Of a DNA stretch of 64,000 bases, positions 7,670-50,803 are shown piece by piece. The notes under the pieces were generated by a model. That model saw only the letters and a program-made list of their open reading frames with translations. It made no database searches and was not told the origin of the DNA. Within the stretch, counting starts at the first letter, position 1. Every line of letters starts with the position of its first letter. The stretch comes from Lama guanicoe. Its lineage: Eukaryota. Location of the stretch: positions 3,226,607 to 3,290,606 of the forward strand of contig MU053559.1 in the NCBI GenBank assembly GCA_013239625.1, written 5' to 3'. A program made the position numbers and the translations under genes.

Positions 7670-8253
7670 TTCTTCTTAGATGAAAAGCTACTGTTGGTTT
7701 ATCTTTAGAAATACAAATTTACAAGTTGAACAGTCACTGACTTTACAAACTTAACAACAAACTATATGAGTTATAGAATTCCTATAATAACAAAAACATT
7801 TGGGGAATAAACGGAACAAATCACCTAGCTCACTTTCAAAATTCAACATTCCTTGCTGTCTTTTTTCTTTAAAAGACAGGTAGGAGGGTGACTTTATTTG
7901 CTAACTACTCAAAAATGCAGGCTGCAGAGAACGGGGTTTGGATTAGCAAACTTGAGCCCGATGGAACTCTTTCTTATTTTACCGGCTATGCTGGCTGGCA
8001 CAATCGGGCTTGGAAGGCAAACCCCTGATGACATCAACCAGCAGTTCCCCTCAGCCCTCCTCCCATCCCAGTGCACCGCAGCCTACCAGTCACAAGAAGT
8101 CTTCTGAAGAGGTTTTGAGGAAAACATCTTGTCCTGGTTTTCTCTGTTCCACGGGGCTTGCCGAACATATCCTTGACAGGCAGAGTTCAAACCGAGTCTG
8201 TTGTCAGGCTGCTGGTCTCCCTTTCCTGGAAGACTCCTGACTGTGCCCTCTGT
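7670..8253 (-). other. Putative 3' UTR of the TATDN2 retrogene
   Basis: Follows the stop codon. Minus-strand AATAAA at 7898-7893 is followed by an A-rich stretch (~7870-7861); a second GATAAA-like end lies near 7700. Confidence 0.5.
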
Positions 8254-10098
8254 TTAAATATTATAGAGGTTAGTAGTGTTCTTGCGTAAGGTGGCCAAGA
8301 TGTGGGAGACTGGCTGATCTTTGATTTTGGCAATCTCCCGAATGGTATGCAGGGCCAGGCCTGGGTGGGCAAACTGGCACAGGCTCTTGGGAACACCACG
8401 AGGGAGGAAGTAGGGAGCATCTGTCTCCACGATGATTCTTTCCAGCGGGATCTTCTTCAGAGCCTCCCGTACGTCCCAGGCAGAAGAGTAAGTCAGGACA
8501 GCCGTGAAGCCCACAGACATGTTGGGGAAGTACTCCAGAAGGGGCTCGATGACTGAGTAATTGCCAGTGAAGCAATGCCTGTGGATCTTGTAATCAGGGG
8601 GCACAATTTTTTTCATGATGCTCAGCAGATCTTTGTCAGCTTCTCGGCAGTGGATCACCATGGGCTTCTTTAGAGACATGGCCAGCTGCAGCTGTCTCTC
8701 AAATATCTTGTGCTGCTGAGGGACAGGTGTGGTGCACTTGTAAGAGTAATCCAAGCCAATTTCTCCAAAGGCTATAGCCTTGGGGTGCTGTAGGGCTTGC
8801 AAAATGCTTCTCTCTTGATTCTCATTGTAGTAACGTGCAAAATGAGGGTGACAGCCGAAGGCCCCCCAGATCAGATCCTCTTTCAGCAGCTCCTCCCATA
8901 GGCCATCCCTTAGTGTGCGAGGATCACAGAAATCAGAGATGCAGCCGTGAAATTCCTTAGGGAAGGAACGGCTATAAATTTTTCTGAACTTTTCAAAGGT
9001 TCCTTTGAAAGACAGCTTGGAGTAGAGCATGTCCAAGTGACAGTGGGTGTCGATGAAACCCTCCTGCCGGCTCTGCTCCCATTGGCTCTTTGGCCGGGAA
9101 TAAGACTTAGAATCTCCCCAAGGACTTGACGGTAGCTCCTCTCGGAGTTGCTGTGTCCACTCCTTCACCTTTGCTTTTGAACTTCTGGAGAAGCAAAGTG
9201 AATGAGGATTTGGAGACTGATCTTCCCCTGCCGCCTTCAGGTCTCTGGACCAGTCTGGGGAGCGCACTGTAGACCTGAAGGAAAAATCCCTCCAGAGGCT
9301 CTGGCTGCTCGACACTGCGTGGAAGCTGCTGCCGCTGCTGCTGCCCAAGGACGGATATAAAGGAAGCGTGGAGCTGCTGGTCCAGGAGCTGCCAGGGTTC
9401 TGCCAAGGACCACCGTACAAATTAGGCCAGTACGTGGCCTGGTCAACTGTGAAGGATGAAGGCGCTGAAATACTGGAGAAGCTGGGTGGGAGTGGCTTCT
9501 CCTGAGGTAATGTGAATGAGAAAACGTCACCCACATCAGGCCAGCCACTTCCTGAAGAAGCGCGCTCAGTTACCACACTCCTTTCTGTGTGCTTTTGGTT
9601 TTCTGAAGGATAGTCATGTCTATCTGGAAATTGCAGGGCTGGAGAGACTTTTTCAAAAAGGGATCCCTTTCGGCCACTGAGTAGCGTCTCGTGGGGTTTG
9701 TCCCCGGGATATGTCTTTGCTCTGCTGTCAGAGAAATCGCTGATCCTGATCTTCTCCCCTGTGACCTCTGGGGCTGACGTTTCCTTTATTTGAGGAGAAG
9801 CAGAGAAGGAAAGAGCCCAGGCCGGTCCATCAGGGCTGGGATGCTGCCCTGTGCTCCATGTTGTACTAGTGGCCTCCTCTTCTGGCCTCGATATTTCCAG
9901 GATGCCCTCGATCGCCTTCACTAAGCTCATTGAAGAGTCTTCATCTTGCTGTCCATTGCTCTTTCTCCAGCCCTTGCTTGCTTCCTCAGTCATATTATTT
10001 TGACCCTCGGCTGTGGCTACAAATTCAGAGTCTGTGGAGTCACAGGAACTTTGTTGGAAATGAACCTTAAATCTGTAGGCGTTCTCGTGAGAAGCCAT
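8254..10098 (-). CDS. TATDN2-like: TATDN2-like TatD-family nuclease; intronless retrogene, 614 aa
   Basis: Single uninterrupted ORF. The C-terminal TatD domain (~9060-8257) has DTHCH, GCHPH, GEIGLD, VIHCR, HCFTG and ETDAP motifs. The N-terminus MASHENAY...NNMTEE matches the internal MASLEEEA...NDTIEE segment of TATDN2 as recalled. Strong Kozak context GAAATGG. The parent gene is multi-exon, so this copy is retroposed. Confidence 0.93.
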
Positions 10099-10535
10099 TT
10101 CTTCTAGAAAGAGTTTGGCGGAGCACGAAGGGGATGGCGCTGAGGGGATTCCACAGACGACAGGAACCCCGAGTGCTCAGAATCAGGCAGTCTTGGGAGG
10201 CTGCTCCACCCACACCCGAGCCTGAAATGGGAGGAGGAGGAGCGGGAGGAGGATGAGGAGCAGGAGGAGGGCGAGGAGCAGGAGGAGGGCGAGGACGAAT
10301 TTTCCTGTCAGGATGAGCCCTAGGAAACCTCGGCTTGAAAGTCAGAAGGTCCTCTTTCTGGGCTTTCAGGCACCTGGGGACGCCAGTCCCTCCCGATGCA
10401 GAGCTGTAAGATGGCCGACTGAGGGGAGGAGGGGCGCGTCACCGGACTCCCCAGACGCTTCCGCGTTTGCTAGGGGCCCGTACCGAAGTGCCGCTCCTGT
10501 GGTAAGCGGCCTTGCGCCGCCCACACGGCTGAGGG
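10099..10535 (-). pseudogene. Decayed, frameshifted homologue of the TATDN2 N-terminal coding region (now 5' leader or intron)
   Basis: Minus-strand frames give [36 protein letters not shown] and LEE-M, matching recalled TATDN2 RLKAQKED, GPGVGGAASKGCLIRNTRG, GFLSSGGSP and LEEM, but spread over different frames. An in-frame TGA lies 27 codons upstream of the ORF start and the ancestral ATG is absent. Confidence 0.8.
10230..10295. repeat. (GGA)n-like purine tract with a duplicated gaggagcaggaggagggc unit
   Basis: Visible directly; its position corresponds to the parental poly-Ser codons. Confidence 0.85.
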
Positions 10536-11200
10536 ACCCTCCTCCTTTCTTTCACTCACCCATCGCCGTTCTCAGTGTTTCAGAGATGTCAAAAGTCCGT
10601 CCACTGGGTTTGTGACCGCAAAGCGACTCGGAAAAGTCACAGAGATCCAAGGCGTACTAACGCTCGGTATGGCGTCCGAGCCCTCAGTGAGCTTCTGCGA
10701 CTACCGAGCACTTTCTTTGAGGGCACAGGTCTACTTCCGGGCCATCAAGCTGCTTCCGGGACTAGAAATGTCGATTCGGTTTGGACTATACGGCCCTCGT
10801 GAGATGTCACGACAGGCTTTGAAAAGGCTGCCAGGTGCTTTAGGGACCCCACACAGGGTCCCCTGAGGTGGACCGCTGGTCTAGAGGTCCAGGCTGCCGA
10901 GGGTGTGCAGGAGGGCAGGGCCGAACCCAGCCATGGAAGGGGAGGGGGCAGATGCCGCTCACCACGCCCCTCACCCCAGGNNNNNNNNNNNNNNNNNNNN
11001 NNNNNNNNNNNNNNNNNNNNNNNNNNNNNNNNNNNNNNNNNNNNNNNNNNNNNNNNNNNNNNNNNNNNNNNNNNNNNNNNNNNNNNNNNNNNNNNNNNNN
11101 NNNNNNCTCAAGTCGGTTCCTTCTTACCCACAGCTGCCCCCCGCCCCTCGCGATCCTACATCCCGACCAGCCCGCCACTGGAACCGCCACCATGGCTTTC
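10380..11200 (-). promoter_or_regulatory. CpG island / candidate promoter of the retrogene
   Basis: High GC and CpG density; ETS/GABP motifs ACTTCCGG (10733-10740) and CTTCCGG (10753-10759); YY1-like AAGATGGCCG (10408-10417). Confidence 0.7.
10981..11106. other. Assembly gap (126 N)
   Basis: Run of n bases. Confidence 1.
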
Positions 11201-18462: not shown

Positions 18463-18613
18463 GTATTATCTTTTGATGCCTATTTGGAAGATGAAGTGCC
18501 TGATAAAAGGCAAGAAAACTATAGAATTAGACGCTATAAAATCTACTTCTACCTTGAAGATGACACAATTCAAGTAAATGAACCAGCATTGAAAAACAGC
18601 GGATTGCCTCGAG
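18463..18613 (+). CDS. EFHC2: EFHC2 coding exon (~exon 3; DM10-1), 151 bp
   Basis: ccaacag|GTA...CGAG|gtatct; translates VLSFDAYLEDEVPDKRQENYRIRRYKIYFYLEDDTIQVNEPALKNSGLPR(G); phase 0->1. Confidence 0.96.
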
Positions 18614-27293: not shown

Positions 27294-28158
27294 ACAGGGT
27301 TCAGCAGTGTTTGGGTAAGTTGGCTGGTATGATGTGGTGTAGTTGGTTGGTACACTCATCTAGTTAGGGATGGCTAATTACCATCTGTGGATACTTGGGG
27401 ACCCTGGGTCCATGTTCTCAAGAGAAGTGAGTGGGCACTATAGGGCTGGAAGTAGAAAATGGGATGAGATCCAGAACCTTTAGCCCAGAGCACGGGCTAA
27501 AACTGATGCCTCTGATTATCCTCACTTCGTGGGGGTGGTTGGGTGGAGGCAGACACAAGCTATAGAGGAAGGAGGGAGAAGAGTTTTGCAGAGAAAAGAA
27601 GACTCCAAGAAGCTTCAAAGCAGCATTAAATCATTCGTGCTTATAGATGCTGTAAATCATGGTGTTGGCATCTACCATAGTGAAGTTTATTAGCTGATTT
27701 TTTTCAACCGAGTGAGTGCACTTCTGTGAGCACTCTGCTTTGGGGCCTTAGTTCCTTGTTTAGTGTGCTCACTTTGAGTGCTAATGGGTGAAAGCGAGCG
27801 GGCTGGTTTTGGGAAAAGACATGATGGCAGTGTCTGGTACATTAGGTTACTCTTGTTTATCCCCCTTCCACCTTCCCTCCTGCCCTAGCCTTTATGGTTT
27901 ATGAAAGTTCTTCCCTAGCACCACTTGGGCAACTCTTTAACAACATGCAGGGCTGATCAAATAACTCTGGGCCTCAGTCGTCTCAGCCCTCTCTGGCACC
28001 CTCAGAGTTTGAACATGCTGATGCCACTGCCTCCAAGAACCAGCCCTTTGCCCACTTCACTGAGGTGGGAAAGGCTTCAGGGTTATTAGAAAGATGTTCT
28101 AGGATCTCTTTCTGGTTATCCACACGATGAAACAATTGTGTTTTATTTCACACCCTAG

Positions 28159-28382
28159 GAACTTCTATCCGGCGTCACCGGATTTCTCTCCCACCTCCGG
28201 ATAAGGATCAGTTTTATACTGTGTATCATTTCAATGTCGGCATAGACGTTGTCTTTTATGGCCGGACGTTCAAGATTTATGACTGTGATACATTCACAAA
28301 AAACTTTCTGAAGAAAATAGGAGTCAAAGTAAACCCGCCGCGACAATGTCCAGAAGATCCTTACCTGAAGTTACGGAGAGAG
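28159..28382 (+). CDS. EFHC2: EFHC2 coding exon (~exon 4), 224 bp
   Basis: ccctag|GA ACT...AGA GAG|gtaggt; TSIRRHRISLPPPDKDQFYTVYHFNVGIDVVFYGRTFKIYDCDTFTKNFLKKIGVKVNPPRQCPEDPYLKLRRE; phase 1->0. Confidence 0.96.
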
Positions 28383-29124
28383 GTAGGTTGACCTGTCCAT
28401 GAGTTATTGTCTTCAGGGTGAGAATCCCTGCGGAGTGTCACTGAAGGATATTGGTAGTCCTGACGCAGAAGTGAAAGGACTTGGGGGGCCATGGTCCCTG
28501 GGATTGTCCTGTTTTCCTTGGGGCTAGAGGGAAGGCTGGGTGGTGGCTTCGGTGCAGGACTCACTGTCTGCCCTCATCCCCACTTGTCTCCGTGGAGAGC
28601 CTCCCTTCCAGGCAGTAGGAGTCTTCAGTGAGCCGCCCACATGGGATAGTTTCTAAGAGCCCATGATTGGTTTTGTGGTCACTGACAGTGTAAGAGTGGA
28701 GCCCACTTACCTGGCTTTTCTTTTCCTATTTTAGTTGCCTGATTCTGGGAAAATCTTTGCTTCTGTGCTCCTGATTTGCTGAACCACGCTTTGGGTGCAC
28801 CTTTTTTTTTTCTTTCTGGGGACTCCCAACTCCCTTTATGGTGATATCAGATGCAGAGATGTTCCAGAGCGAGAAGGGCCATGATTCCGGTGTACCTCCA
28901 TGATGACAAGATGCTGTCTTCAAAGTCTGATCCCAATTAATAGCAGTAGTGTAGTCTTTCCAAATGCCCAAATTTTATGTTTTACAAGGAGACTCTGACG
29001 GGCATTGCCCCAGAAGGGCAAGTGTCATGTGGAAGGTCACATACACACCCGTCTTCTTGCTGGGAGTTGCTCTAATCTCTTGCTTCTTGCCATGATTTTT
29101 CATCATTATCATTTGTTTCTCTTT

Positions 29125-29365
29125 TCTCTTTTTATTGAAGTATGATTATATACAGTAAAATACACAGAAATTAAGTATACAGCTTGATGGGTCTGAACAA
29201 ATGCATGCACCCATGTAATCCACAACCAGAACCATAATATTGAATATTTCCATTCCCCCATAGAGTTCCCGCCTGCCTTTTTCCAATCTATCCTTCTCCC
29301 CATCCAGGGATAAACACTGTTCTCATTTGTATCCCTATAGATTAATTTAGTCTCATTTTGATTGT
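29125..29365 (-). mobile_element. L1 3'-end fragment
   Basis: 'tttttattgaagtatgattatatacagtaaaatacacag...aagtatacagcttgatg'. Confidence 0.75.
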
Positions 29366-30721
29366 TTCTAAATCTTGTAATTAATTTCTTTGCAGAAAGA
29401 TAATATAAAATTTAGAATAAAATTCTCCTTTGATTCTGCTTTGATCTCTTGTTAAAAGCTGCATGTAGGATCATTCATCTCTTCGTGCCTCCTAGCCCCA
29501 GCAGAATTGTCCTTCAATGTTGTAGGCATGCAGCCCTCCTGAGAAATACATATATATTGTTGATCCCGGACTATCTTAAGGTGAAATCCCTGTGTCATTA
29601 AACTTGTGTGTATTGGTGTGCAAGGAGATTTATGGCCTGGCTTCATTTTAATTTTTTTTTTTCTAAATGCCCTAGATGAAAGGGACTCCATAAATACAAA
29701 GTCTTTAGAACCAGCAGAGAGAACCTAAAAGAAGTGAATCTGTATAAATTACGACTCTTTGCATCTAGCTACGCTCTTCATTGACACTTGGTATTATATG
29801 ACAGTGATAGTGAATGATGATGCACTATATGAAATACATAGAACGCTCTGTGATTTCATAGGTTCATAAAGAAAAAAAAATCTTTTGTTCCGGGAATCAA
29901 GAATAATTCCCAAGAACAGTCAAGAAATGTTTTAAATAGTTTCCTTTCAGATTAGGAGAATCATTTTAGCATTTATTCCCTCAGAGAGAAAGCTCTTCAA
30001 TAAATATAGAAATCTGTGGAAAATTAGGAGTTTAATAAGAGGCTTTTATATTGACTTTTGTGCATTTACTTCTCCAGTGTTTGCTGCCTTGAAATGTAAA
30101 GTTAAAATTAAACAATTTAACTTGAACTGAAAAAAAGCCCCAATGGTATATGGTCAATATTGCATTTCTTAGAGGCCTTATCATTGCCAAAGAAACCTTT
30201 TTCAATGGCTGAAAATAGAGATCCCATAATTTCATGTAGATATCAAGGATGGGACTGAAGAGTTTCTGGAAGGCCATGATGTCTCCCCCACTGTCTGGGG
30301 ATAAGTCTGCACCTAGACTGCCCTGGACAGAGACACAATTTTGAGAATTTACAAGTAAGATTACAAAACCCGACGTGGGGCCACATCTTCCGTGGTAGTG
30401 AGCACTTCCTTTTATAACGACTGCGTGAGGCCACATGAGATAGAGGAGGGGCAGTTTTGCTCCAAAGCAGGTCTGAGAATATGCGGATAGGGAAGAGTTG
30501 TGCCAAGAAGACTGCAGAGGCAGTGGTTCCTGGGTTGGGGTATGGAGCCCTGGCAGTGGTTCTGTGCTGATTGGGAAGCTCTCCATGGCATTTGAGTTCC
30601 TCAATATCTGTAAAGCTTTTGAGCAAAATAAAACCTTGAATATATTTCTTCCCTTTTCCCTTTAAAAAATCTTTGGGTGAGTTAAGAAGGATAGGTAGAT
30701 AGGAATTATCAGTGAAAAGAA

Positions 30722-30955
30722 TTTTTTGGTTGAAATATAATTAACGTAGAGTCAGATGTATACATCTTAAAAGCCTACACATAGACCAGATTTGAAAAAT
30801 GCATGCAATTTAGTAAACAACATGAAAATCAAGATAGAGAATATTTCCATCACCCCAGAGAGCCCTCTTGTCCCCCTTTCCGATCAATCCTCTACCCAGA
30901 GGCAGTAACTATTCTCATTTCTGTCACCATATATTAGTTTCATCTGTTCTTCAAC
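30722..30955 (-). mobile_element. L1 3'-end fragment
   Basis: 'ttgaaatataattaac...aatcaagatagagaatatttccatcaccccaga'. Confidence 0.7.
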
Positions 30956-31246
30956 AAGAATTTTAAGTCTTTGAGAAAAGTCAGTTTCCAAAAAATTATA
31001 GAGGTATTTTTTAGCATATTAAAATAATGTTTAATGCAAAGCTTCCTGATACTTGATTGTCTGTATTTCTAAGGTTGAAACTGATTACATATGCGTATCA
31101 TGTATGTTGTTAGTTGAAATTTTAAAAAGACCACAGAGTAGTCTATGGAAGAGATACCTAAGATATCTTTATGTTCCTTTACTGCTTGCATCCCAGAAAT
31201 GACTATGGAAAATCTCAACTATCACTGACCTTTTCTCCATCTGCAG

Positions 31247-31498
31247 ACGCTGGATTGCGTGGAGCCCTTACGTCCCTACGAGTCCTTCGACACTCGGAAA
31301 CAGTTCCTCAACTATGATAGGAAGGTTCTGCGTTTCTTCTGCCTGTGGGATGACTCAGGCTCAATGTTCGGGGACCGTAGAGAACTCACCCTGCTTTACT
31401 TTCTGTCTGATGATACTATCGAAATCAGAGAAACGTTGCCACATAACTCAGGAAGAGATCCTGTGACAGTGTTCCTCCAGAGGAGAAAGCTACCTAAG
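31247..31498 (+). CDS. EFHC2: EFHC2 coding exon (~exon 5; DM10-2), 252 bp
   Basis: ctgcag|ACG CTG...CCT AAG|gtgagc; TLDCVEPLRPYESFDTRKQFLNYDRKVLRFFCLWDD...SGRDPVTVFLQRRKLPK; phase 0->0. Confidence 0.96.
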
Positions 31499-32104
31499 GT
31501 GAGCGATGGGCAGAGGACCGCTTTCCGAGTTTGCTTTCCGAGTGGGCTAAAGACTCAGGTCACTCACTGTCTGGAATGTCATGTGTTATGACTGCGTGAT
31601 GACAGGTTACCATGTAGTAGTGCAAGTGTTTAGAAAGCTTCCATTTTGTGCCCTCTATTAATATACATCTATGAAAGTAATACAGAGGATATGACAAATT
31701 GGAATTGGAGTATTCAGAGCTTAAGGCAAGTAAAGGAAAAAAGCCAAATGCAAGAGAACTACCTTTTCATCATTTAGTTCACAGTGAGCCTTATGAAGGT
31801 AAATGACTCTCTGGTTAAGAACTGCTCGTGGCCTTGGGCAGGGCACTGGCCTCTGTAGCCTACTGAGGAGACCCCAGCCTATTGGTCTGGGTTGTGAATA
31901 CACACATAATGCATGCACAAAGACATGCACGGGCATGTGCACACACAAGTATACACGCAGGAGGGAGTCTTCTGAGGGTAGCCACTAGTCACCAACTAGC
32001 CACTGGCTAGCAACAGTGATAGCTTTTGCATTTTACTATTTAAAAAGAGGTGTCAGACTGATTCTACACATATTTATGGCTATTAGAGAGCTAATGTAAC
32101 TTGT

Positions 32105-32300
32105 GTATGGCAGAAACAGCACAGAGACAGAAGGCCTGGGTTAGAATTGTGGGTCTGCCACTGAATAGCTGTGTGACCTTGGGCAAGCCATTAACCTCTC
32201 TGAGCATATTTCCCTATCTCCAAAATGCAATTAACTAGGCTTCCCTCCTGAGGTGACTATAAAGATTGAGTGAAATAATATAGTAAAAAGCACTATCAAA
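32105..32300 (+). mobile_element. MIR SINE
   Basis: 'tagctgtgtgaccttgggcaagccattaacctctctgag'. Confidence 0.75.
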
Positions 32301-33665
32301 AGACCTGTAGACACCTCTGAGGACGTGTGAAAACATCAAGGCCTATTTCCGGCTCTATGCAGTATTTTGTTTCTTATTTGGATCAAGTATTTTTCAACTT
32401 AATTCTTAGTGCTGCTGGTAAGATTACTGTAATGCTCATTTCTGAGGCAAACCACCCCTGGTTATTTGGTTATCGCAGGAGACTCTCCCAGATTCTCTGA
32501 GGCTACTGCCAGAAGTCCTGCTATGTCGCTTGCTTGCAGGGGGTGGGGCAGGATTTGTCCCAGAGTGAACCCTGGGGTATTCACAGCGAGTGGCCAGGAG
32601 GTGCCAGGGGAACCTGTTTTTAGAATGGCTTTGAAAACTGAGTAGAAAATAATAATGGCACACCTGACATTTGCGGCATTCCCTGACATCAGTTGCTTCA
32701 TTTATTCATGCATTCAACAAATGTCTGTTGAGTGTGAACTGTGTGCCTGCTCTGGGGTTACAGTAAGAAGGAGAATAGAGTGAGTCCTGCTTCATGGAGC
32801 TCCCATTCTCATGGGGGAGAGATACAGTAGCAGTGAGTGTTCCCTTGACACAGCATCCTTTGAGAAAGCCAAAGAGTACTGTTGTTGAGGTTAGATGAAA
32901 TAACTGAGAAGATAAATTCCTAGCCCCAAGTCCTGCAGCTAGAAAGTGGCGAAGGGAGAGTTTGCGCCCAAATGTACTATTTTTCTATGTGACACGGCTT
33001 ACTTGTACTCCATACATCATAAGTTCACACATTTAGACTTAGATTTTACATCACACGTATCAGGGACGATTTTGATTTCTCATCTGTATGGAATAAACCA
33101 GTCACTATCGGTTTATATAAGTTAGTTAAGATATTTCCTGCCTGGACCACCTCAGTGCATGTGGAACTGAGGAGTGGCCTGGCCTGCTCCAGGCCACAGT
33201 TTGTGTTAGAGGCCAACTGCACCCCATGGTCCCGGCTACCTCACCACACCGCCTCTCTCTGCCAGCAAGTGCTTCCTTGCTCAGGAGCAGGCAGGGTGCT
33301 AAGTGAGTAAAGGGAAAAAGGCAGGGTAGGGTGTCTTCCTCAGGGTGTTTTGTAGTTTTGTAGCTTAGTGAAGAGAAAAGGTGACTTGCTGATGAGGCAA
33401 TTGGAGAACCACCGTAAGTGGTTGAACCCAGCAGTAGGTGCTATGGAAGTTTGGACTGGGGATAGGCCAGTAGGATGGGAGAGGTCAGGGGAAAAGATGG
33501 GGCTTTATCAGGGCCTTGAAAGATGGGTGGAATGTAGACCAGCCCACAAGGGGTGAGGAAGCATGGGGAAAGGTGGCTGGAGTATGCAGCCTGTCCTTGA
33601 GATGGCAGAGAAGAACTATATGGTGCCTCTTACCACGTGTGCTCCTCAGCAGGACCATGTTTGTG

Positions 33666-35684
33666 GTTTTTTTGTTACACATGTATTCGTTGTCACATTC
33701 TTTTTCACTGTGAGCTACCAAAAGATCTTGTATATATTTCCCTGTGCTATACAGTATAATCTTGTTTATCTATTCTACATATACCTGTCAGTATCTACAA
33801 ATTTTGAACTCCCAGTCTGTCCCTTCCCACCCCCCTCCCCACTGGCAACCACAAGTTTCTGTTCTATCTCTGTGAGTCTGTTTCTGTTTTGTATTTATGT
33901 TCTTTTTTTTTTTTTTTTTTTTTTTTCCACTTAGTAATTTCTTTTTTTTTTTTTTTTTTTTTTAAATGACATTCTCCAGGGACATCCATGTTGCTACAAA
34001 TGTCATTATGTTGCCATTTTTATGGCTGAATACTATTCCATTGTATAAATATACCACCTCTTCTTTATCCAGTCATCTATTGACGGACATTTAGGCTGTT
34101 TCCATGTCTTGGCTCTCATAAATAGTGCTGCTATGAACATTGGGGTGCAGGTGTCTTTTTGAAGTAGGGTTCCTTCTGGATATATGCCCAGGAATGGGAT
34201 TCCTGGGTCATATGGTAAGTCTATTCCTAGTCTTTTGAGGAATCTCCATACTGTTTTCCACAGTGGCTGCACCAAACTGCAGTGTAGGAGGGTTCCTTTT
34301 TCTTCGCAGCCTCTCTAGCATTTGTCATTTGTGGACTTTTGAATGATGGCCATTCCGACTGGTGTGAGGTGATACCTCATTGTAGTTTTGATTTGCATTC
34401 TCTGATGATTAGTGATATTGAGCATTTTTTCACATGCCTGTTGATCACTTGTATTTCTTCCTTAGAGAATTGCTTGTTTAGGTCTTCTGCCCATTTTGTT
34501 ATTGGGTTGTTTGTTTTTTTTTCTTATTAAGTCGTATGAGCTGCTTATATATTCTGGAGATCAAGCCTTTGTCAGTTTCATCCTTGGCAAAAATTTTCTC
34601 CCACTCCGTAGGTTGTCATTTTGTTTTGCTTATGGTTTCCTTTGCTGTGCAGAAGTTTGTAAGTTTCATTAGGTCCCATTTGTTTATTTTTGCTTTTACA
34701 TCTATTGCTTGGGTAGACTGCCCTAGGAGAACATTTTTGAGATGTATGTGAGATAATGTTTTGCCTATGTTTTCTTCTAGGAGGTTTATTGTATTTTGTT
34801 TTATGTTTAAGTCTTTGATCCATTTTGAGTTTATTTTTGTGTATGGTGTAAGGGAGTATTCTAGCTTCATTGATTTACATGCTGCTGTCCAGTTTTCCCA
34901 ACACCATTTCCTGAAGAGATTATCTTTATTCCAGTGTATATTCTTGCCTCCTTTGTCAAAGATTAGTTGACCAAAAGTTTGTGGGTTCATTTCTGGGCTC
35001 TCTGTTCTGTTCCATTGGTCTGTATGTCTGTTTTGGTACCAATACCATGCTGTCTTGATGACTGTAGCTCTATAGTATTGTCTGAAGTCTGGGAGAGTTA
35101 TTCCTCCAGCCTCTTTCGTTTTCTTCAGTAATGCTTTGGCAATTCTAGGTCTTTTGTGATTCCATATAATTTTTATTATGATTTGTTCTAGTTCTGTGAA
35201 ATATGTCCTGGGTAATTTCATAGGGATTGCATTAAATCTGTAGATTGCCTTGGGCAGCGTGACCATTTTAACAATATTGATTCTTCCAATCCAGGAACAT
35301 GGGATATCTTTCCATTTTTTAAAGTCTTCTTTAATTTCCTTAATCAGTGGTTTATAGTTTCCTGTGTATGAGTCTTTCACCTCCCTGGTTAGATTTATTC
35401 CTAGGTATTTTATTACTTTGGGTGCTATTTTAAAGGGGATTGTTTCTTTACTTTCTTTTCCTGTTGACTCATCGTTAGTGTAAAGAAATGTAACTGATTT
35501 TTGTACATTATTCTTGTAACCTGCTACCTTACTGAATTCTTTGATTAGTTCTAGTAGTTTTTGGGTGGACCTTTTAGAGTTTTCTATGTATAGTATCATG
35601 TCATCTGCATATATTGACAATTTTACCTCTTCTTTTCCAATTTGGATCCCTTTTTTTTCTCTCTGTTGCCTCATTGCTGTGTCT
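33666..35684 (-). mobile_element. Relatively young 5'-truncated L1 (ORF2 C-terminal part + 3' UTR)
   Basis: 352-aa ORF2p fragment (35674-34616) with the RT YADDM motif; further ORF2 pieces to 34033 (CTPMFIAALF, WYIYTME); imperfect 15-bp TSD at 33651-33665 and 35685-35699. Confidence 0.95.
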
Positions 35685-35744
35685 AGGACAATGCTTGTGT
35701 TTAACGGTCATCCCCCACATCTTGACTTGGTTTTTATCTTCCAG

Positions 35745-35858
35745 TATGGCCCCCCTGGAGTCTATCAACCAGGCCAGTTAGCAGATCAAACAGTTCTCAA
35801 TATGTATGGTGGCTATTCAGTGAACCGAGTGTACAGATACCTGCTGGATAAATACAAG
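35745..35858 (+). CDS. EFHC2: EFHC2 coding exon (~exon 6), 114 bp
   Basis: ttccag|TAT GGC...TAC AAG|gtaagg; YGPPGVYQPGQLADQTVLNMYGGYSVNRVYRYLLDKYK; phase 0->0. Confidence 0.94.
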
Positions 35859-36240
35859 GTAAGGACCCTCACATTTTATTACTGTTGCCAATGTGACTTC
35901 CCTGGAACCTAGAAAGGAGGGTGAGTTACATATCCTTCTCCTGGGAGATTGATTGTGAATGAAATCAATGAATGTGTAAATATGTGTGTGATACTGCTGT
36001 TTATCAGTAATAAACATGCTCAAGTGCACATATAAATATACACATTGAATTGCCATTTGGTAGCACTATGTAGCTTAAAGAATGTTTTAAAATGTTAATA
36101 TTGAGTGGTTGTCTTTTGATTTAAGAAATTTGCTTATAAATGATATAATTTTTTGTTAATTATCTTTTTTCCTTTGGGAGGGAGTGCCAAGGTCTCTGGA
36201 GGGTCTCTGGTGCCAATGTCATGTTCTTTTGTTTTCTTAG

Positions 36241-36379
36241 CCAGAAAAATTAGAGCAAGAGTTTTACAAAGATAGTGACCTGTCCATAGGAACCACCATC
36301 AACGTGTGGGGAAGGAAAGTGCTCCTCTGTGACTGTGACAAATTCACGAAGACTTATTATAAGACTAAATATGGAATTG
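36241..36379 (+). CDS. EFHC2: EFHC2 coding exon (~exon 7), 139 bp
   Basis: tcttag|CCA GAA...ATT G|gtaagt; PEKLEQEFYKDSDLSIGTTINVWGRKVLLCDCDKFTKTYYKTKYGI; phase 0->1. Confidence 0.95.
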
Positions 36380-36489
36380 GTAAGTGATACATCTGTCAAT
36401 TAGAAAGTAACATTTAAAACTTAGATCTTTGTTCCCTAGTTAGGATTGATTGTGCTTTTTTGAGTTTCAGATGCTAAGCTCATAAGAGT

Positions 36490-36700
36490 TACCATTTATT
36501 GAGTTATTTGCTAACTACCGGGCATTTATTGTCTTATTTATTCCTGACAAACAACTCTAGAAGGGTAGGCTCATTATCCCCACTTTAGAGGTGAGGAAAC
36601 CATGGCTTCAAAGGGGCTTACTTGTCAAAGGTCACTCAGCAAGTAAAGGGTGAGTCAAGACTTGAACTTGTCCGCCTGATGCCAAAGGCTTCCATTTTCC
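36490..36700 (-). mobile_element. MIR SINE
   Basis: 'attatccccactttagaggtgaggaaac...cttgtcaaaggtcactcagc'. Confidence 0.7.
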
Positions 36701-39700
36701 TTGGTAGCTCTCTGCCTCACTAGAGTATGGGTACATGCTTTGGTCAAGCCATTGAAATGGAAATCTAAATGCTTTTCTTTTCACTGAATTCTTGCTTACC
36801 ACGGTGGATATACTTATTTGAGTTCTCTTGGGGGATTCTCTGGTGCCAGTTTGCTCAACCTTTCCTGGTGAGGCTCAGCCAGGTTTCCAGCTTCTCTCTG
36901 CTTAGCTATCAATTCCATTCAGATCAGGTTAGTCCAGTTCAGAATGAAAACCGGTGATCTATTCAGCAGCTACTGGACACAGGTCATTGCAGTAGACTTA
37001 GGAGTTATGGAGCTGTGTGAGGACTTTCTAGGCTGGAAGGGGAGCAGAGACCTACAGTTATGTTACACGGTGTTATGAGTCGTTGAAGCAGCTGGAGGAT
37101 CTGATGTGAAACCTGAAAAACAAACCCCTCCGTTTGTGAAACCTGCCAGCCAGCTCTGCCCTCCTCCTCGGCTCTCTGCCCCAGACTCCAGGTGCCTGCC
37201 AGTACTTGGCTAAGAGGGGATGGTGCAAGTCGCTGACCTCCCAGATTGGGATTTAGAGCTCGGGTGTGGGAGACTGACTCCCATAGTCCTCTCTGAACCT
37301 TGGAATATTCATATGAACACACTTCCCTAAGTGATCACAGCCTCCTAGAAGACAAGGTGCTTTGTCTCTGGGATGAGACGAGGCTCACCTTACGTGTCTC
37401 GGTGTCCCTACTGCATAGTATTCCTGGCCTCCTGGGAATCTATATTGTGGGAGAAGGCACACAGAGCACACAAAGGGGTTGAAATAAAAAAGACTTTGTG
37501 TCACTCTTCGGTTCATTAAGAGAATTAGTTCCACCACCTCTGCATGCCAGCTTAGTCCAAATGTGTGGGCCCACGGGGCCAAATTGGTAGCCTCTTCTTG
37601 TATTATTTCCTAAAATTAGTCCTCTTTAGTGGACACCGTTGGGCATATTTGTTTTTGGGGCTGAGGGCAAAGGCAGCCAGGACTGTGCAGGTGGTGGCTG
37701 CTGTAGAGAAGCTGCCAGTGACCGTTAGATGGTTTGGAAGGATAATTTGGTCTTTAATAAATGTAAATGCCTGTTTAGAATCAACAAGTCTTCAGTGTAG
37801 ACTTGAAAATTTGAAAAAAATTATATATATATATAATGAGCAGAGAATATATGTATATATTATATAATATATAGTTGTATATGTATAGTAAGTCACTGAA
37901 ACATTTACCTGTGTCCTACTGAAAGGTGACCCTAATACAAAGGATGTGATAAAGGTTCCAAAATATCATATGATCCTTTAAATATTAAGTCCAACATTTG
38001 ATTGATATTTGTCTGTCAGCTTGATTTTGAGAATATAAAGTTTGCATGTGGGAAAATAAACATAGTGCGGGAGAGACATGGTACATTGCTAGTCACTCCC
38101 TGGGTTTGTAGGGGGCTTTCAGAGGCAGAGTAAATTCACTGGTGCGCTCTAGATCTAGCGGTCCTCGGCAAATGTGTCAGCTTCAGGTGCCTTGTGGTCC
38201 ACTTCAGTTGAGCTCTAGTGCTTAATTTCTTCCTGCTCACTTCTTTTGTTCACCCTATAGACTTACTGTATTATATAGAAAAAAAAGTCATGTGTGCCTG
38301 TAAAGCTGATATAACATGAGCATTATGCATTTAAACAGAAAATTATGCAAATGCAAAATTATGATGCATTTTATGGTCATGCTGACTTTTTATATTTCTC
38401 ATAACATATATTAAAATATCCCATTTAACAGACACTATAATTACACAACATTTCTTGAGTAACAACAGTTTACTTAATGTAGCTAACGACTGGAAATTAT
38501 ATCCATGATTCAGGGAGGATGGGAGTGAATCTTCACATTTACTTTTTCTGACTTTTTGGTAATGTTAAATTATTACACTTCGTGTTACTTAGGTAGTTCT
38601 GACATTTTAATTTTGTTTGTAATTCATCTGGTTCTAAAAATTCGTAAGACTGACTACATTTTATACATTATATTTCGGTATCCTTGAAGCCCAAACCAGG
38701 ACAAAGTCCTGGCAATCATTGTAGTCACGTTTCGTTCCTTGTCAGTGACTGTGGTCGGCAGAATACCTGGCGTCTCCACTCTGCAGCACCACAGGAAGGA
38801 GCCGACAGCTGCCAACCACACGGCAAAAGCCCTCCCCGAGAGGAAGCCAGGGGGCGATTTCGAATGCAGTGTGCAGCCTTGGTGCTTTAGTACCTTCCCT
38901 TACCTAATGCCCCAACATGTTTTGGGGGAGAAAAAAGTGGCAGACGGGCTAAGAGAAGGAGTTGGCTCTGGTCCCAAGAAAGGTGCATGAGTAAGCTTTC
39001 TATTTATGGAGAAGCAGAGAGCTTGATAGAATTCCAAGAGATCTATGTAGCCCCGTGTAAAACCCAGTCTGACTCCTAAAAAGATGAGATTCTTTTGTGC
39101 ATCTCAGGATTCTAAAGAGGAGGTCAGTTCTTCCACAAAACAATCCAGTGTGACTCCCCCCGTAGGCAGCCTGGCTATCCCGCTAGCCCCAGCTGGCCTG
39201 CTGGGCTCGAGCGTGTCACTCCCTCATTATTTCACGTGCATGAGTGCGGACTGGCAGATGGAGGCCTGTTGGACTTTCCTGTAGCATGAAGGTTGGAAAA
39301 GGCTCCAGGGGCTCTAGCAGGTGTTTCTTTCACTGAAGGGACAGGGATTTGAATGTAAACCATTCTTACCTAGAATTCCTGTCTTAGGTTATTCTTTGTC
39401 TGTAAGAGGACTTAGCATCGATTCTTAGTGGCTGAGACACCCAAACTAGTAACAAGACCATTCATTCCCATTGTCTTTGAATACTTATTAGGCTGTACTG
39501 ACATTAAGGATGAGCAAGAAACTTAAAGCACCTCTAATTTTGTAGAGTCATTTCTGGCCCTCTCTGAACTAGAAGCAGCAGGGCATCCAAGATGAGAGTT
39601 TAATGATCATTTGAGCAAATCAGCCATCCAACGGTGCAGGGACAGGGGTAGAATTTGCTTCTGGTCTCACCACATGGCCTTGATGGACCTAACAATTTGG

Positions 39701-42543
39701 CCTTTTCTTTTTTTTTTTTTTTTAACCTCTCCTAAGAGGAAAAGAGGGTTGAGGATTAGATTTCTAATGGGATTTCTAAGGGGATGGATGATTTCTAAGG
39801 GGTTTCTAGCTATAGCTAGAAAATGATGTGATTCACTAATTATTTGACCCCAAAATGAACATCCCACCAAACTCATTTGACCTGGGTATTGGGTACAAGC
39901 AGAGGTGGATTTACCTTAAAGTTAATTAAGCTTAAGCTCTAGGGTTCTTTCTTTGCAGGGGCCCCAATTCCAAGGCCCTGGGCCTCATTTTGTCTTAATT
40001 ATTTGGCATTCTTGGTCTTGAAGAGCTTCTCCCAAATTATATAAGCTTCAGGCCTCCTGAAACCTGGGTTCATATCTGCGTTGCTAGAACATCAGAGATG
40101 AACATTGAGATAATTAAAGGCTTTTCCCAGCATCGTTTCCAACTGAGATGGTGAATAGTAAATCACTGGGAAGGAGTATTAAGACTTAACCTTTTAAAGA
40201 TCTATCACCTCTCTGTAAATTTGTTGGAATCTAGTCAATTGTGGATGGACATTCAATATATATGTTTTTACAAATCTCCTGGAATTAGAGGAATCAAACT
40301 GTTTGAAAGACAGTTGTGTCTCAGGATCCAGCAGAGTGTCAGTGTAAGAAGATATTTGAGAAGATGCTTTGTGAAAAAAAATGTATACTTTTTCATCAGA
40401 TGTTTTTGTTAATACCTGAAACCTGCAGGATGCTGGGCTGATGGAAAACCAGAGACAGGAAACTTACTCAGGTGCGAATCCAGACCACTGTGAATATATG
40501 CAATTACCCAGAGAAATGAGATCTTGAGTCAGGATATCCAAAAAAGATTGTGGTGTTACAAAAATCAGGCATGGTAGAGTGGAACAGTTCTCGGCATTTA
40601 CACACTAGATGGCACTGTGGGTGCAGAGGAAAGCTCTAAATTGATTCTTTTGTTACTTAAATCTGTTGCAAAAATTATGTAGTTGAGAAAACAACACTGT
40701 GTTATAAAACCTGTAATTTGGGGTGGGGGGAGGTATAGAATGCAGTCTTAATTACTTTGAGATTCAATATGTGTCCTCTTTTGGTTAGACTACTTAGATT
40801 AGTATATAAAGTTGTATGGATATGTCCCCTGTTAGGAGAAACTGATCATGCCCCGATTTTCTAATAATCACGTTGCGCTCTCCCTGCCGTCCCTATGGTC
40901 CTTTCTCTGAAATGAAGGTACCAGTTAGTGGTGTGTTTCATGTAACAGTTCACAATGATAGGGTCTGCTGCAGTTCTGCCTAATTCCAAGATGTGAACTT
41001 TCCTCTTTATTACCAAAGCTTCTCTTTAATTGCCCCAAAAATAGCAGTAAGAGAGGCTCCCTAGTCACTTCCATACCAACAGTCTGGCTGTCCCCTTCCC
41101 CCGAGCCAGTGAGAAATAGTTGATGGCATCCTCTTTGCCAGTATGTCTTCTGTAAGCAGTTTCTGTTAGGCTGGAACAATACTCTTTTGGTGATTATGCT
41201 TGCGGGGATTTCACACAAAGGCTGTTAGGAAGTCTAAGGAATGGGAAGGTTGAAAACATTTTCAAATCAGAGGTAGAAAGAGCCTCAAACCCTTAGCCTT
41301 TTGATTAATCTGTATGAAGACAAAAAATCCCTCAGTTTTAAGACTGCAGTTGCCTTGGAGGACAAATTGATGCACATTTTCAGTTAGAGAGACATGCAGT
41401 CAACCTGTACTTTTGCTTCTGTTAGAACTTTGGCAATGGAAAAGGAAATCTTTGCTTATGTAAAACTCCATTCAGTCACAAATGGGAACACCTATGGGAT
41501 ACTCAACATATGGGAAAAAGTAGAAATTAGATTCTGTGGGTTGTTTTGTTGCTTTGTTTCGTTTTGTTTTACAAAAGATCCTGGCATCATCTTTGCTATT
41601 TGTGCTGGGATACACACAGGTGACTGGGATCTGCTGAGGCAATGTGTTATCTGCTCTGGAGCGCGCACTTGCTTCTCAGAGAGGAGTACCTCACAGCTCC
41701 CAGGCTGTGTCTCCAGCTCTTTCTCCATGTCTCCTTTCTCACAGATGATAAATGAATAAAGGAAGTCCACAGTACTAACCACTTACCACTCCCATTGAGA
41801 GAGTAGGCAGTGGCTGTTTTAAAAGTTCTGTTTTTTTGGTTCGGGTTTTATTTATTTATTTATATTTACTAATTTGTTTTGTGGCTCCGTCACATTTCAG
41901 TTCAGTTGCAGTCTTTCTTTGGCCAGTAACAAGAGCAGCCTGGAGCAGCGGCTGGTGAGAAGTTTTGTTTTGTTTTTTTTAACTGAATAGTAAAGTGCCA
42001 AGGCCTGGAGTTGAGTTGGAGGAAGGGAGAGGGCTTAAAAAGTGGGCGCAGGAGGAGGTGCCCTCAGATGGGGAAGGTAAAGGCAAAAAAAAGTCAGAAG
42101 TCAGTCCTGTTTGGAAAGGAATTTGATTAGTGAGTGTTGACTAAAGATAGCACAGGGCTACATTACAGGTTAAAATATGGAATGGGTGGTGTAAAGTTCC
42201 AAGTTCGAATTTTCATATCATTGGAAAAATCAGGGAAAAACAAAAACTGTTCTAAAACGGGGATGTGATGACAAAAGATAAATGTTTACTTATTCGACAC
42301 AGACAGTTTCTTTTTTTTTTCTTTCTTTTGAACCATTGGCGATTATTGAGTGAGTTCTGTGGTTTCTGTAAACATGATTGAAACCTGCCCTCACAGGATT
42401 TCGCTGTGTTTTGTTTGAAAGAGTTTAAAATAGTCCACAAAGATCTCCATGTTCGTCTTGAAAACATAACAAACCTTTCAAAATAGCCATAATCAGGGCA
42501 AAAAAAAAATATTGATGTTTCATTTGCCTTTGTTTTGTTGTAG

Positions 42544-42709
42544 AGAACTTTACCTCGATTTCATGCAAGGCCCCATCTCCTCCAAAAATAGAAAGGAAAT
42601 TTCCACCTTATACCGGCTTTGGTTCTGAAGAGGATTCTCTCCGCTCCTGCATAGGCCTCATGCCCACACCTCATCAGAGGGACTTGAAGAAGTTCATGGA
42701 AAAAGACAG
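42544..42709 (+). CDS. EFHC2: EFHC2 coding exon (~exon 8), 166 bp
   Basis: ttgtag|AG AAC...GAC AG|gtgctt; (E)NFTSISCKAPSPPKIERKFPPYTGFGSEEDSLRSCIGLMPTPHQRDLKKFMEKD(S); phase 1->2. Confidence 0.95.
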
Positions 42710-42889
42710 GTGCTTGAGGGAACCATTATTTGAGTCTGATCTTTCCCAGATGTGTTCGGGGTTTATAATATTGTCCTCATGACAAAACAGATGATACTTA
42801 ATTTATCTCACTTCAAGTCCAGGGACATGTTATATAGCTTTTTAATGAAGTTGATTAATATATAAGTGTTAACAGGTTCTTCAATGCTT

Positions 42890-43760
42890 ATTTTATTTAT
42901 TTTCTTCCAGCTTCATTGAGAAAAAATTGACATACAATATTTGTCAAGTTATAAGTTTAAAATGTACAGCATGATGCTTTGATATATATATATTGAAAAA
43001 TGATCACCACAGTAAGATTAGTTAAGATCCATCACCTCACATAGTTAGAATTTTTTTTTCTTGTGATGAGAACTTCTAAGATTTACTCTCTTAGAAACTT
43101 TCAGATATATAATACAGTATTATTGACTGTAGTCATCATGTTGTGTGTTACGTTCCCAGAACTTATTTATCTTATAGCTGGAAGTTTGTACCTCTTGATC
43201 CCCTTTACCCAATTCCCCCAACCTCCTCACCCCAGCCCCTGGCAACCATAAATCTGATCTCTATTTTTATGAGTTTGGGTTTTTTTTTTTTAAGATTCTA
43301 CATATAAGTGAGATCATGCAATACTTGTCTTTGTCTAACTTATTTTACTTAGCATAATGCCCTCAGGGTCCATCCATGTTGTCTCAAATGGCAGGATTTC
43401 CCTTTTTATGGTTGAATAATACTCCGTTATGTGCATGTGTGTGTATGTATGAGATATATAAACATATATATATATATATATATATGTTTCTTTATCCATT
43501 TATCTGTCAATGGATATTTTGATTGTTTCCCTGTCTTAGCTATTGCAAATAATGCTGCAGTGAACATGGGGGTACTGATATCTTTTTGGAACAGTGCTTT
43601 CATTTCTTTTGCATATATATCCATAAGTAGAATTGCTGGATCATATGGTAGTTCTATTTTTAATTTTTTGAAGAGACGCTATACTGTTTTCTATAGTGGT
43701 TACACCACTTTACATTCCCACCAATAGAGCAGAAGTGTTCTCGATTCTCCACATGCTCAC
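42890..43760 (-). mobile_element. L1 (L1MA-like) 3' end
   Basis: Antisense 3' UTR plus ORF2 tail peptide (STPMFTAALFAIAK). Confidence 0.85.
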
Positions 43761-43904
43761 ATTGAGTGGTTATCTTAATGTGTCGCCTGGAAACCCTTCA
43801 AGCCATCTTATCCCCAATTTTATATTGCCTTTCCATGTATATGCATATATATATGCCTTTCCATATACATCTCTCCTCAAGATGGTCCCTAGGAAATGGT
43901 GTAG

Positions 43905-44240
43905 ATTAGAGGTCAACAAACTTTTTCCGAAAGAGTCAGATAGTAAATATTTTTGGCTTTGCAGGCCACACGGCCTCTGTCACAACCACTTAGCTCTGCC
44001 GTTGTAGCATGAAAGCAGCCACAGTGGGTAAACAAATGTGTAACTACATTCCAGTAAAACTTGTTTATAGACATCGACATTTGAATTTCATATAATTTTT
44101 ACATATCACAAAATACTCTTCTTTTGATTGTTTTCAATCTTTTAAAAATGTGCAGACTATCCTTAGCTCACAGGCCATACAAAAGCAGGTGGCGGAATGT
44201 ATTTGGGCCCAGAGGCTGTATACAGTTTACCTACCCCTGG
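43905..44240. mobile_element. MER58-like hAT-Charlie element
   Basis: 'gaggtcaacaaactttttccgaaagagtcagatagtaaatatttt' ... 'agtttacctacccctg'. Confidence 0.8.
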
Positions 44241-44889
44241 GATAGTAGCTTTTGTGATTTGTAAGTGTTTTTTAGAATGTTATTTGGTAATTACTGTGGT
44301 TTTACTTTGAGAGGTTTGGTTGAATTCAGTAGCCATAGATTGCTCACATGGTGGACTATAATTTCAAAAGATGGACTTTCCAAAGTGTTCCTAAGATATA
44401 TGAGGAAAGATGTACCCCTGAGTCATGTGTATAGATAGATGTGGGCACTGCTCAGGGCTGTTTTTTGCTTCTGCAGGGAAAGCAGGCCGTGGAGAAAGAA
44501 GCTGATGGGGGAGAGTGGTGGGAAAATGTTGCAGATGCTTGAATAGGATGTGAGCTAAACGTTGAAGCCCTGCATGAGCGAAATAATGGGTCAGGAGAAC
44601 CTGTGGAGGAAGATGATAAAAGGGAACATGTAGTAAGAGCAGGAGAGGAGAACAGGGCAGCATCCTGAATCTGATCAAACTGAATGGCATCACATGCTGT
44701 GGTAGAATATTTTGAGGTACAGAGGATAGTTTTGCTGTAAATTGTAAAAATGGTGAAAATATGTTCAGAATTGTACAGAACGTCTAAAAGGCTACCTTTG
44801 TCGTGACATGCTGTCCCTTGTCTTTTAAGAAATAACCTTTTGTTTTTAAGGACTTGGGAGTTTTGTCTTTAAGTTGCAGAGTTGATGCT

Positions 44890-45050
44890 GCTCAAAGTGT
44901 GGTCCTCATACTGGTTGGAAATACAAATTCTTGTGCCTTGCCCCTGACCTCCAGAGGCAGACTCTCTCGGGGTGGGGCCCGGTCCTGTGTTTTAACAAGC
45001 CTTCCAGGGGGTGGTTCCCTGGTGGGCACCAGGGTTTGAGAACCACTGCT
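44890..45050. mobile_element. MER5A-like element
   Basis: 'ctcaaagtgtggtcc...tgttttaacaagccttccagg...tttgagaaccactg'. Confidence 0.75.
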
Positions 45051-46009
45051 TTTGATCACAGAAGAGGGACCCAAACTCATACTCCATGTTCCCTTAGAGA
45101 GAGCAGTGTTTACAGCGAGATTCGAGGGCAGGACTTTTGGTGGCTACTTTTCACTAACTGCTGTTTTTAAGGGCAGCCACCCGAAGGAGGCGGGCAGGAA
45201 GAATGTCCCTATTGTAAAAGGAGAGGGAATTTTTCTTATAAGTAAACAAGATGAAACATGATCTAGGATGTTGCTTCTGGAACCCAGGGGGAAAACGGTT
45301 CCTTGTGGGTAATTGTCTTAGTCTCTCTTTCTGTCTGCACCACGTCAACTTGCCCACAGAGCACTGACTGTAGACAGCATTCTACGTTCTGGTCATGCTG
45401 TTGTGGCTGGAGGACGGTGGTAGAGGCACGAATGCCTCTAATTTCTTTTCTTTCTGTCCACTGCTCGTTCTGTGCCAGGAATACAACTTCCTCAAGCTCC
45501 TCCCACACAGTGACCTTGTTTCCATGGAAACTGGCACATTCAGCTGGAGACTTATACATGAGTTTGAATAACCCAAGGTTTTAAAAGCGTGAGAACCTAA
45601 GGAAGATGATGCTCACAAAGCATACAAAGAATAGTTTCTAAATGCAAATAAATAAACCGTGAATTGAGACGTGCAATACTACGTAACATGTGTTGATTAT
45701 GTATATTGCTGTTGAAAGTTTTTCCTGGGTGCTCACTGTTACATGAGGTTAATGGTGATCTACTGTGAGTCGTTGGAGGAGATAGTTTCAAATTCAAGCA
45801 TATGAGGTTTTTGTTGGAATGAGGACCTTTATTGTCTGGGGAAAAATTCACTGGTGGCCTGCTGGGCAGATTGTCTAGTCTGACTTGGGAGAACCCGAGT
45901 AATAATATCTTTCTTGCTGCACCTGGCTGAATTAGTTACTTTGTCCTCCATGTGCTCACAATCCTCTGCTGATCACACCTCTAATAATAATATTACTAAT
46001 AAAAAGCAA

Positions 46010-46230
46010 TTTGTGTTTATGGTGTGCTAACTACTTTACAATACTCGATCTCATTTAATCCTCAAAACAACCTCATAAAGTAGATACTATTATTGTACCC
46101 ATTCTTCACATGAGGAAACTGAGGCTCAGAGAGGCTATACAATGTGCCCAAGCTCACACAGCTAATCTTTAGTTGAACTAGGATTTGAACCCAGGGAAGC
46201 CTGGCTCCTGGAGTTCACCTTTCTTGCCAC
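46010..46230 (-). mobile_element. MIR SINE
   Basis: 'tctcatttaatcctcaaaacaacc...atgaggaaactgaggctcagagagg'. Confidence 0.85.
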
Positions 46231-46677
46231 AGAACCTGTACTTAACACAGTGTGGACCAGTTACTTGTTTATATCTAGAGCAAGAGCTCCTTGAGGGCAG
46301 GGACTGGCTTTATTGCTTCTCTCACAGTTAGAGCAGTGCTGGCTGTATACTTGGGTTCAATCAGTATTTTGTCCAATAAGAGAAGGAATGATGAATAAAT
46401 GAGTAAATAGAATGAACATTCACCCTTTTAGTTCTTAATGAATGACAGAATAGACAGTTATCCCAGACTTGTGTTATTCCTAATCAAATAGCATCTAAAA
46501 ATTCATTTAATCTTAACCTCTGACTTATTTCAGATATTGTCCATCTGCTGTCTCCTTCAGTTATTTCCCCTTTAAAAAAGTTTTTCCCCTCAATAAAAAT
46601 AAACCTTCACACCTCTTCTAACCATAAGATTATGGCTGTCTTTAAGGTTTTCAGTAAGTCTGTAGCCCTGGGTGAGC

Positions 46678-48135: not shown

Positions 48136-48727
48136 CCAGGCTGTGTGTAGAAAAAAATTAAGACATAGCTGCTGGACCTGGGAATTTGTCATTTGTTTTG
48201 AGACAGTGGGAAGAAACACATTTTAAAAAAAGCCAATCAATAATACAAAGTCTATACATGCTAAGTTGGGTGCCGTGGATAACGATTGGTGCAGAAGGCG
48301 TGAATAGGAGGTCAGCTGAGTGGGCAGCCATGGTCAAGATGAGCTCTACTGATGGGGGCCCAAATGGATGGACAGGACTCTGGGCAGGCATAGAAAAAGA
48401 TGAGGGTGTACCCTGGGAGAAGGGATGACACCAAGTGAAGACTGGAAGTAGAAACAAGCACAGTGTGGGGCACTAAATGAAGTGGCCTGTGTGACTTGAC
48501 TAGGGTGTGTATTGTAGGTAGTCATGACAAATAGCTGTCTGTGTATGTATTTGAACCTGACTGTTGATGGCTCAGAAAGCCAGATTGAGCAGTATCGGTG
48601 GTATGATCGGAAGCAGGGAAAACGTTGAAGTTTTTTTGAGTGCTGGGAGTATTGTGATAAAAAGAGTTGTTTAGAGAAGTTTAATAATTAGCTTATTAGT
48701 CAAGGAAATAATCTGAAGATACATGCA

Positions 48728-50701: not shown

Positions 50702-50803
50702 CCAGAGCATACCTTTTGCAGGGTTTTTGTTGTTGTTGTTACATGCATAATGTGTGGAAGATTACTTGTATAATGTTATAATCCTCATTTTTCTTCCATT
50801 TAG

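Follow-up and report, generated by a model that had tools for sequence, protein, structure and literature searches.

A retroposed TATDN2 mRNA lies on the minus strand of the window (the whole 64-kb stretch of DNA analysed here), and it is an old, intact second copy of this gene that many mammals have kept. The preferred reading, to which a probability of about 0.62 is given, is that of a retained X-linked retrogene encoding a male-germ-line TatD nuclease, which starts at the former Met127 of TATDN2 and shows two inherited evolutionary speeds. The copy is intronless, belongs to a single clade, has EFHC2 as its host gene, keeps an intact active site and a constrained barrel, and has lost the first 126 codons of its parent. 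Its open reading frame (8254..10098, minus strand) encodes 614 aa, with Met1 corresponding to Met127 of human TATDN2, and one HSP spans parent residues 108-741 in a coding region without introns, the parent presumably being a multi-exon gene. In this protein, a disordered arm (residues 1-346; 9061..10098, minus strand) is followed by a TatD class II (HxH) barrel (residues 347-614; 8257..9060, minus strand), and the Pfam TatD_DNase match covers residues 349-613 of the 614 (E 3e-61). The closest of the best 120 of 573 matches is a 614-aa protein of Camelus bactrianus (93%), and the copies in all three Camelus species have 614 aa and differ from the window protein at 46-47 of 614 positions, which points to a New World camelid as the source; an exact look-up of the window protein in the protein collection returned no entry. 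Membership of the TATDN2 subfamily is seen in the nesting of the copy within the vertebrate TATDN2 tree and in its retention of the E593 and E705 equivalents and both cysteines.

All nine active-site residues checked against human TATDN2 (P0130) are present in the copy, where human H499, H501, C538, E593 and H630 are represented by H352, H354, C391, E446 and H483, and human H655, C656, E705 and D707 by H508, C509, E558 and D560. The metal and catalytic codons of the barrel lie, all on the minus strand, at 9043-9045 (H352), 9037-9039 (H354), 8761-8763 (E446), 8650-8652 (H483), 8575-8577 (H508), 8425-8427 (E558) and 8419-8421 (D560), and the protein has the HxH motif with Glu, His, His and Asp metal ligands that define class II in the available text of PMC10085689. 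A sequence-only reading of this DNA had described the catalytic residues as complete, the barrel differences from human TATDN2 as mostly conservative and the arm as far more diverged, and it was right on all three points: 42 of 268 barrel positions differ (84% identical), 28 of them with BLOSUM62>0, as against 195 of 343 arm positions (43% identical), of which just 50 are conservative. The structure prediction it had proposed returned a confident barrel and a disordered arm (AlphaFold on a 69-row alignment; 267 residues with pLDDT of at least 90 and 303 below 50), and a Foldseek search with the predicted structure ranked TatD structures first, with E. coli TatD 4p5u as the best match. Its remark that several changes add positive charge applies to the human comparison, where 8 barrel changes add and 4 remove charge (net +6 in the copy, +1 in human TATDN2), but the gain is modest against the camelid parent (+3 in Vicugna), a comparison in which Q365K, a change seen against human, does not appear. 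In 10 of the 12 lineages compared, which are not independent, the copy has a higher net charge than the parent; charge gain, at +3 relative to the camelid parent, was rejected as a strong signal.

The age of the copy has been addressed with several trees. In a tree of 121 rows, 29 stand apart from 92 parental rows, and among 42 selected rows with reptile outgroups, 20 form one clade (100/98) outside the boreoeutherian parents, which divides like the species tree into Laurasiatheria and Euarchontoglires, with the caveat that long branches meet within it. Under a mixture model with 39 rows, a copy clade of 17 rows was recovered (SH-aLRT 97) that includes two monkeys and a mole-rat; in the same tree Sorex P0347 and P0348, tried as second copies, fell among the parents. 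The tree of the domain alone is weaker, with a support of 87 for a copy clade that does not take in the squirrel. Full-length open reading frames persist in artiodactyls, rhino, carnivores, bats, colugo, monkeys and rodents. In the colugo Cynocephalus volans, two second-copy proteins (P0171 and P0338) are found on one 181-Mb contig, which suggests that the retrogene was duplicated there.

The plus-strand exons of the window from 18463 on match EFHC2 better than EFHC1. The exon at 18463..18613 encodes residues of about 78-128, at the start of DM10 domain 1, and further exons with DM10 matches lie in the plus-strand stop-to-stop frames 28131-28388, 31229-31588, 36241-36384, 50751-50966 and 53365-53607, a series spanning 28131..53607 that also holds a likely exon (42516-42779, plus strand) to which Pfam assigns no domain. 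Because a motif search of the 64-kb window found no EFHC2 exon before residue 78, we infer that the copy is antisense in the intron preceding the residue-78 exon. A LINE-1 ORF2-like fragment of 352 aa with a partial RVT_1 match occupies 34616-35674 (minus strand) in an EFHC2 intron. In human, TATDN2P1 is described as a processed pseudogene that lies on chrX within an intron of EFHC2 and has yielded two peptides, both confined to testis samples (accessible part of PMC5834625); the testis peptides recur in a second paper (excerpt of PMC8062694). A distance of 207 nt separates the two peptides, matching that between residues 486 and 555 of the copy, and the second peptide is found letter for letter, including a Y>F change, in the clade member from Nasalis, which together with a Plecturocebus protein represents the primates in the clade. 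The shared host gene, the spacing of the peptides and the proteins of the monkeys make it very probable that the camelid locus is orthologous to TATDN2P1, which probably lies in the same EFHC2 intron and in the same antisense orientation.

The real N-terminal change in the copy, which the sequence-only reading had overlooked, is the loss of residues 1-126 with their basic clusters. These residues carry a net charge of +15 in the Vicugna parent, and basic-cluster (NLS-like) patterns gave 0 matches in the copy as opposed to 3-5 in each of five parents. A decayed homolog of parent residues 5-106, interrupted by one stop and a frameshift and lying in another frame, is left upstream at 10166..10519 (minus strand), with a GGA-rich repeat inside it at about 10230-10304, and presumably now serves as 5' UTR or promoter. 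It falls within a CpG-island-like candidate promoter of unassigned strand (10001..10750), in which lie two 500-bp windows that alone among 251 pass both CpG o/e >0.6 and GC >0.55. The three ATGs upstream of the copy start open merely 3-17 codons, and of 41 second-copy rows, 38 have Met at the start column; some second-copy annotations start further upstream in sequence that partly resembles the parent. The segment 10331-10954 (minus strand) aligns with predicted N-terminal extensions of the sheep and muntjac copies and is therefore common to artiodactyl loci. A putative intron (10559-10104, minus strand), bounded by a donor-like GTGAGT at 10559 and by an AG in a pyrimidine-rich context just before the start codon, could splice the remains of the N-terminal region out of the 5' UTR. 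Upstream, the GC-rich 5' region adjoins an assembly gap of 126 N (10981-11106), because of which the promoter end and the insertion boundary are partly hidden. On the other side, a candidate AATAAA poly(A) signal (7893..7898, minus strand) lies about 355 nt past the stop and is followed by an A-rich stretch. Of 37 repeat families, the 20 largest include no target-site duplication flanking the copy. Within the arm, which is 42% identical to that of the Vicugna parent, 11 indels of 1-4 codons relative to that parent all keep the frame, as had been claimed, yet this is automatic because the reading frame is open throughout.

Rates of the copy and the parent were compared on a fixed 12-lineage topology with matched trees. 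The arm has a tree length of 3.83 in the copy and 1.26 in the parent (3.0x faster), and the barrel 1.47 and 0.27 (5.4x faster), so that the arm/barrel ratio of the copy is 2.6 (2.1-3.1), below the 4.6 (3.2-6.7) of the parent. In none of 40 bootstraps was the ratio of the copy the higher one, and pairwise distances, whose arm values near 50% identity can be affected by alignment error, concur in 58 of 66 non-independent pairs. Because the contrast is stronger in the parent, the slow barrel and fast arm are an inherited TATDN2 architecture and not new in the copy, as opposed to the earlier proposal that the two-speed pattern was special to it. Of that proposal, purifying selection on nuclease activity combined with a remodelled targeting arm, constraint on the barrel is supported and the remodelling of the arm is not; the barrel has sped up more than the arm. 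Invariant columns make up 132 of 268 in the barrel (49%, where 25 neutral simulations of matched length reach 35% at most) and 4.9% in the arm (against at most 4.3%), so that the arm comes close to neutrality, with slightly more fixed sites than expected. Rates along the arm are nearly uniform in the copy (gamma alpha 4.7, compared with 1.1 in the parent), and this fits largely relaxed constraint. The barrels of the window and Camelus differ at 5 of 268 positions; none of 400 neutral simulations at d of at least 0.03 gave five or fewer differences (frequency 0.15 at d=0.015), and none of 400 at d=0.15 kept a stop-free reading frame. Judged at the protein level, the barrel of the copy appears to be under purifying selection, weaker than in the parent.

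The accelerated barrel would also be expected if the copy were a dispensable backup losing constraint, with the arm as a neutral spacer that stays in frame since the start codon precedes the barrel. The absence of the window protein from the protein collection, the annotation of the human locus as a pseudogene (see above) and changes at the active site all point in this direction. All seven metal and catalytic residues are kept in 33 of 41 second-copy rows, and active-site changes in the other 8 mean that catalysis is dispensable in some lineages. Full-length reading frames from Smutsia gigantea (P0173 and P0322) carry E446K, H483Y and H508Q, and that of Oryx dammah (P0148) carries H352Y, E446V and D560S; these pangolin and oryx copies are possible pseudo-enzymes or assembly errors. 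D560N occurs in four bovid rows and one further ruminant row (P0050, P0145, P0015, P0162 and P0043), at the position of human D707, where D707A is reported to retain partial activity (accessible text of PMC10711561). C391S is shared by Mesoplodon and every one of the 8 ruminant rows. Against the loss of constraint stand the full-length reading frames across so many lineages and the five barrel differences from Camelus, and a dispensable backup is considered improbable. More improbable by far is the suggestion that barrel conservation reflects gene conversion by the parent or a recent origin, for which the squirrel copy might be cited, as it lacks 4 of 6 clade-typical barrel residues and falls among the parents in the domain tree. 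In a tree test, the log-likelihood falls by 70.7 units (AU p=0.00034) when the camelid copies are forced onto the camelid parents, and recent conversion or origin was rejected for the camelid copy. Between the window and the Vicugna parent there are also 44 differences among the 268 barrel sites, and of the 6 residues typical of the clade the window has 5, Q461 and G568 among them. This verdict covers recent events in camelids; old or short tracts may exist.

A different explanation of the fast arm is recurrent positive selection, including a burst on the branch of the New World camelids, as might arise from conflict in the germ line or an arms race related to sperm. The 41 arm differences between the window and C. 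dromedarius comprise 27 on the window branch, 5 on the camel branch and 9 that are not polarisable (27 vs 5, n=32, p=0.0001), compared with 4, 8 and 1 in the parent (Fisher p=0.002), and the maximum-likelihood arm branches are 0.109 for the window and 0.017 for the camel. A hot spot at residues 128-151 (9646..9717, minus strand) holds 10 of the 27 changes (permutation p=0.0001), and the invariant columns of the arm exceed all 25 neutral simulations even though the arm is fast. CpG decay was rejected as the main cause, fitting just 4 of 31 lineage changes, as was a compensated frameshift at residues 128-151, where every change has a single-base path; assembly error is unlikely because DNA runs under three organism codes, some possibly the source, hold 1.00 of the sampled words. 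Any excess over neutrality depends on the branch length assumed. With a shorter camelid branch of about 0.016, as in genome trees, it would be 2.4-3.2x. A branch of about 0.036, obtained from a split at 16.3 My (available text of PMC12127551) and a mutation rate of 1.1e-8 per 5-year generation (available text of PMC7305198), predicts about 26 neutral changes where 27-36 are seen, or only 1-1.4x the neutral expectation. Single-outgroup tests agree in direction in 7 of 7 cases and reach p<0.05 in merely 2 of 7. Positive selection is the strongest of these competitors and still a doubtful one.

Under the preferred reading, that of a kept germ-line retrogene, a single retroposition of TATDN2 mRNA into an intron of X-linked EFHC2 would have preceded the split of Laurasiatheria and Euarchontoglires, and the copy would then have been kept as a gene. 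Transcription in male germ cells would proceed from the CpG-rich 5' remnant and translation from the former Met127, yielding a protein with a barrel under weakened purifying selection and an arm that is for the most part nearly unconstrained. Like TATDN2, this protein may be a TatD 3' exo/endonuclease that depends on Mg; its probable place of action is in late or post-meiotic cells, in which the level of the parent is low. Human TATDN2 is described as a 3'-5' RNA nuclease and R-loop resolvase whose N-terminal region is required for R-loop binding and in which removal of residues 1-489, a far larger truncation than 1-126, raises decatenation (available text of PMC10711561), and an NLS is often found in this region (available text of PMC10085689). 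By analogy, a copy without the basic N-terminus should differ in R-loop binding or nuclear entry. In the accessible part of PMC12709183, mammalian TATDN2 is absent post-meiotically and fish tatdn2 persists, which by comparison suggests a possible division of labour between copy and parent in germ cells. Four RNA runs from 2 studies, two of them labelled 'reproductive system metagenome', hold 0.40-0.43 of the sampled words; these matches may stem from DNA, from pre-mRNA of the host gene or from a relative, and they are not counted as expression. Two more runs, in which the shares were small, were left aside.

Three human TatD paralogs are counted in papers (available texts of PMC10711561 and PMC10085689). 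Many mammalian orders seem to have retained a fourth copy, whose human match is a 'pseudogene' with peptides from testis, and this makes the copy an X-linked candidate for a role in fertility that can be tested. Being naturally truncated, it could also help to map the role of the TATDN2 N-terminus, and it is a possible off-target of TATDN2 inhibitors proposed for BRCA1-deficient cancer, and comparative studies may confuse it with the parent, whose RefSeq name it shares. The two-speed pattern that first drew attention is ordinary; the gene itself merits attention. The translation of TATDN2P1 has already been published, and its orthologs are in RefSeq under the name of the parent. A literature search, with subscription journals mostly outside it, found no evolutionary or functional study treating the copy as a conserved gene and turned up no published measured camel-alpaca dS; supplementary retrocopy catalogues may already include the copy. 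A bolder version, offered as speculation and rather unlikely as a whole, would have a fourth TatD nuclease of Boreoeutheria, X-linked and N-terminally cut, take over a late or post-meiotic germ-cell role still performed by fish tatdn2, with an arm under recurrent positive selection and a focused New World camelid burst, and would make TATDN2P1 a real male-fertility gene.

The copy resembles human TATDN2 in its TatD class II barrel and its long disordered N-terminal region, but differs in lacking introns, residues 1-126 and the basic clusters and in evolving 3-5x faster, with barrel changes typical of its clade such as E461Q and Q568G. With TATDN2P1 it shares the EFHC2 host, the absence of introns and the colinear peptides, and monkey members of the clade share the Y>F change, as opposed to the difference that the camelid locus has a full 614-aa reading frame and the human locus is an annotated pseudogene. 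Database members of the clade of about 610 aa, such as Camelus bactrianus XP_045361153 and Bos taurus XP_059739785, are named automatically in RefSeq/GenBank as 'putative deoxyribonuclease TATDN2' and are not separated from the parent. Testis-expressed mammalian retrogenes are known for intron loss, nesting in introns of other genes and faster evolution than their parents, and the copy is like them in intron loss, nesting, speed and the testis expression of its human counterpart. In classic retrogene backup the move is out of the X; here, with an autosomal parent, the copy would represent the opposite move, from an autosome to the X.
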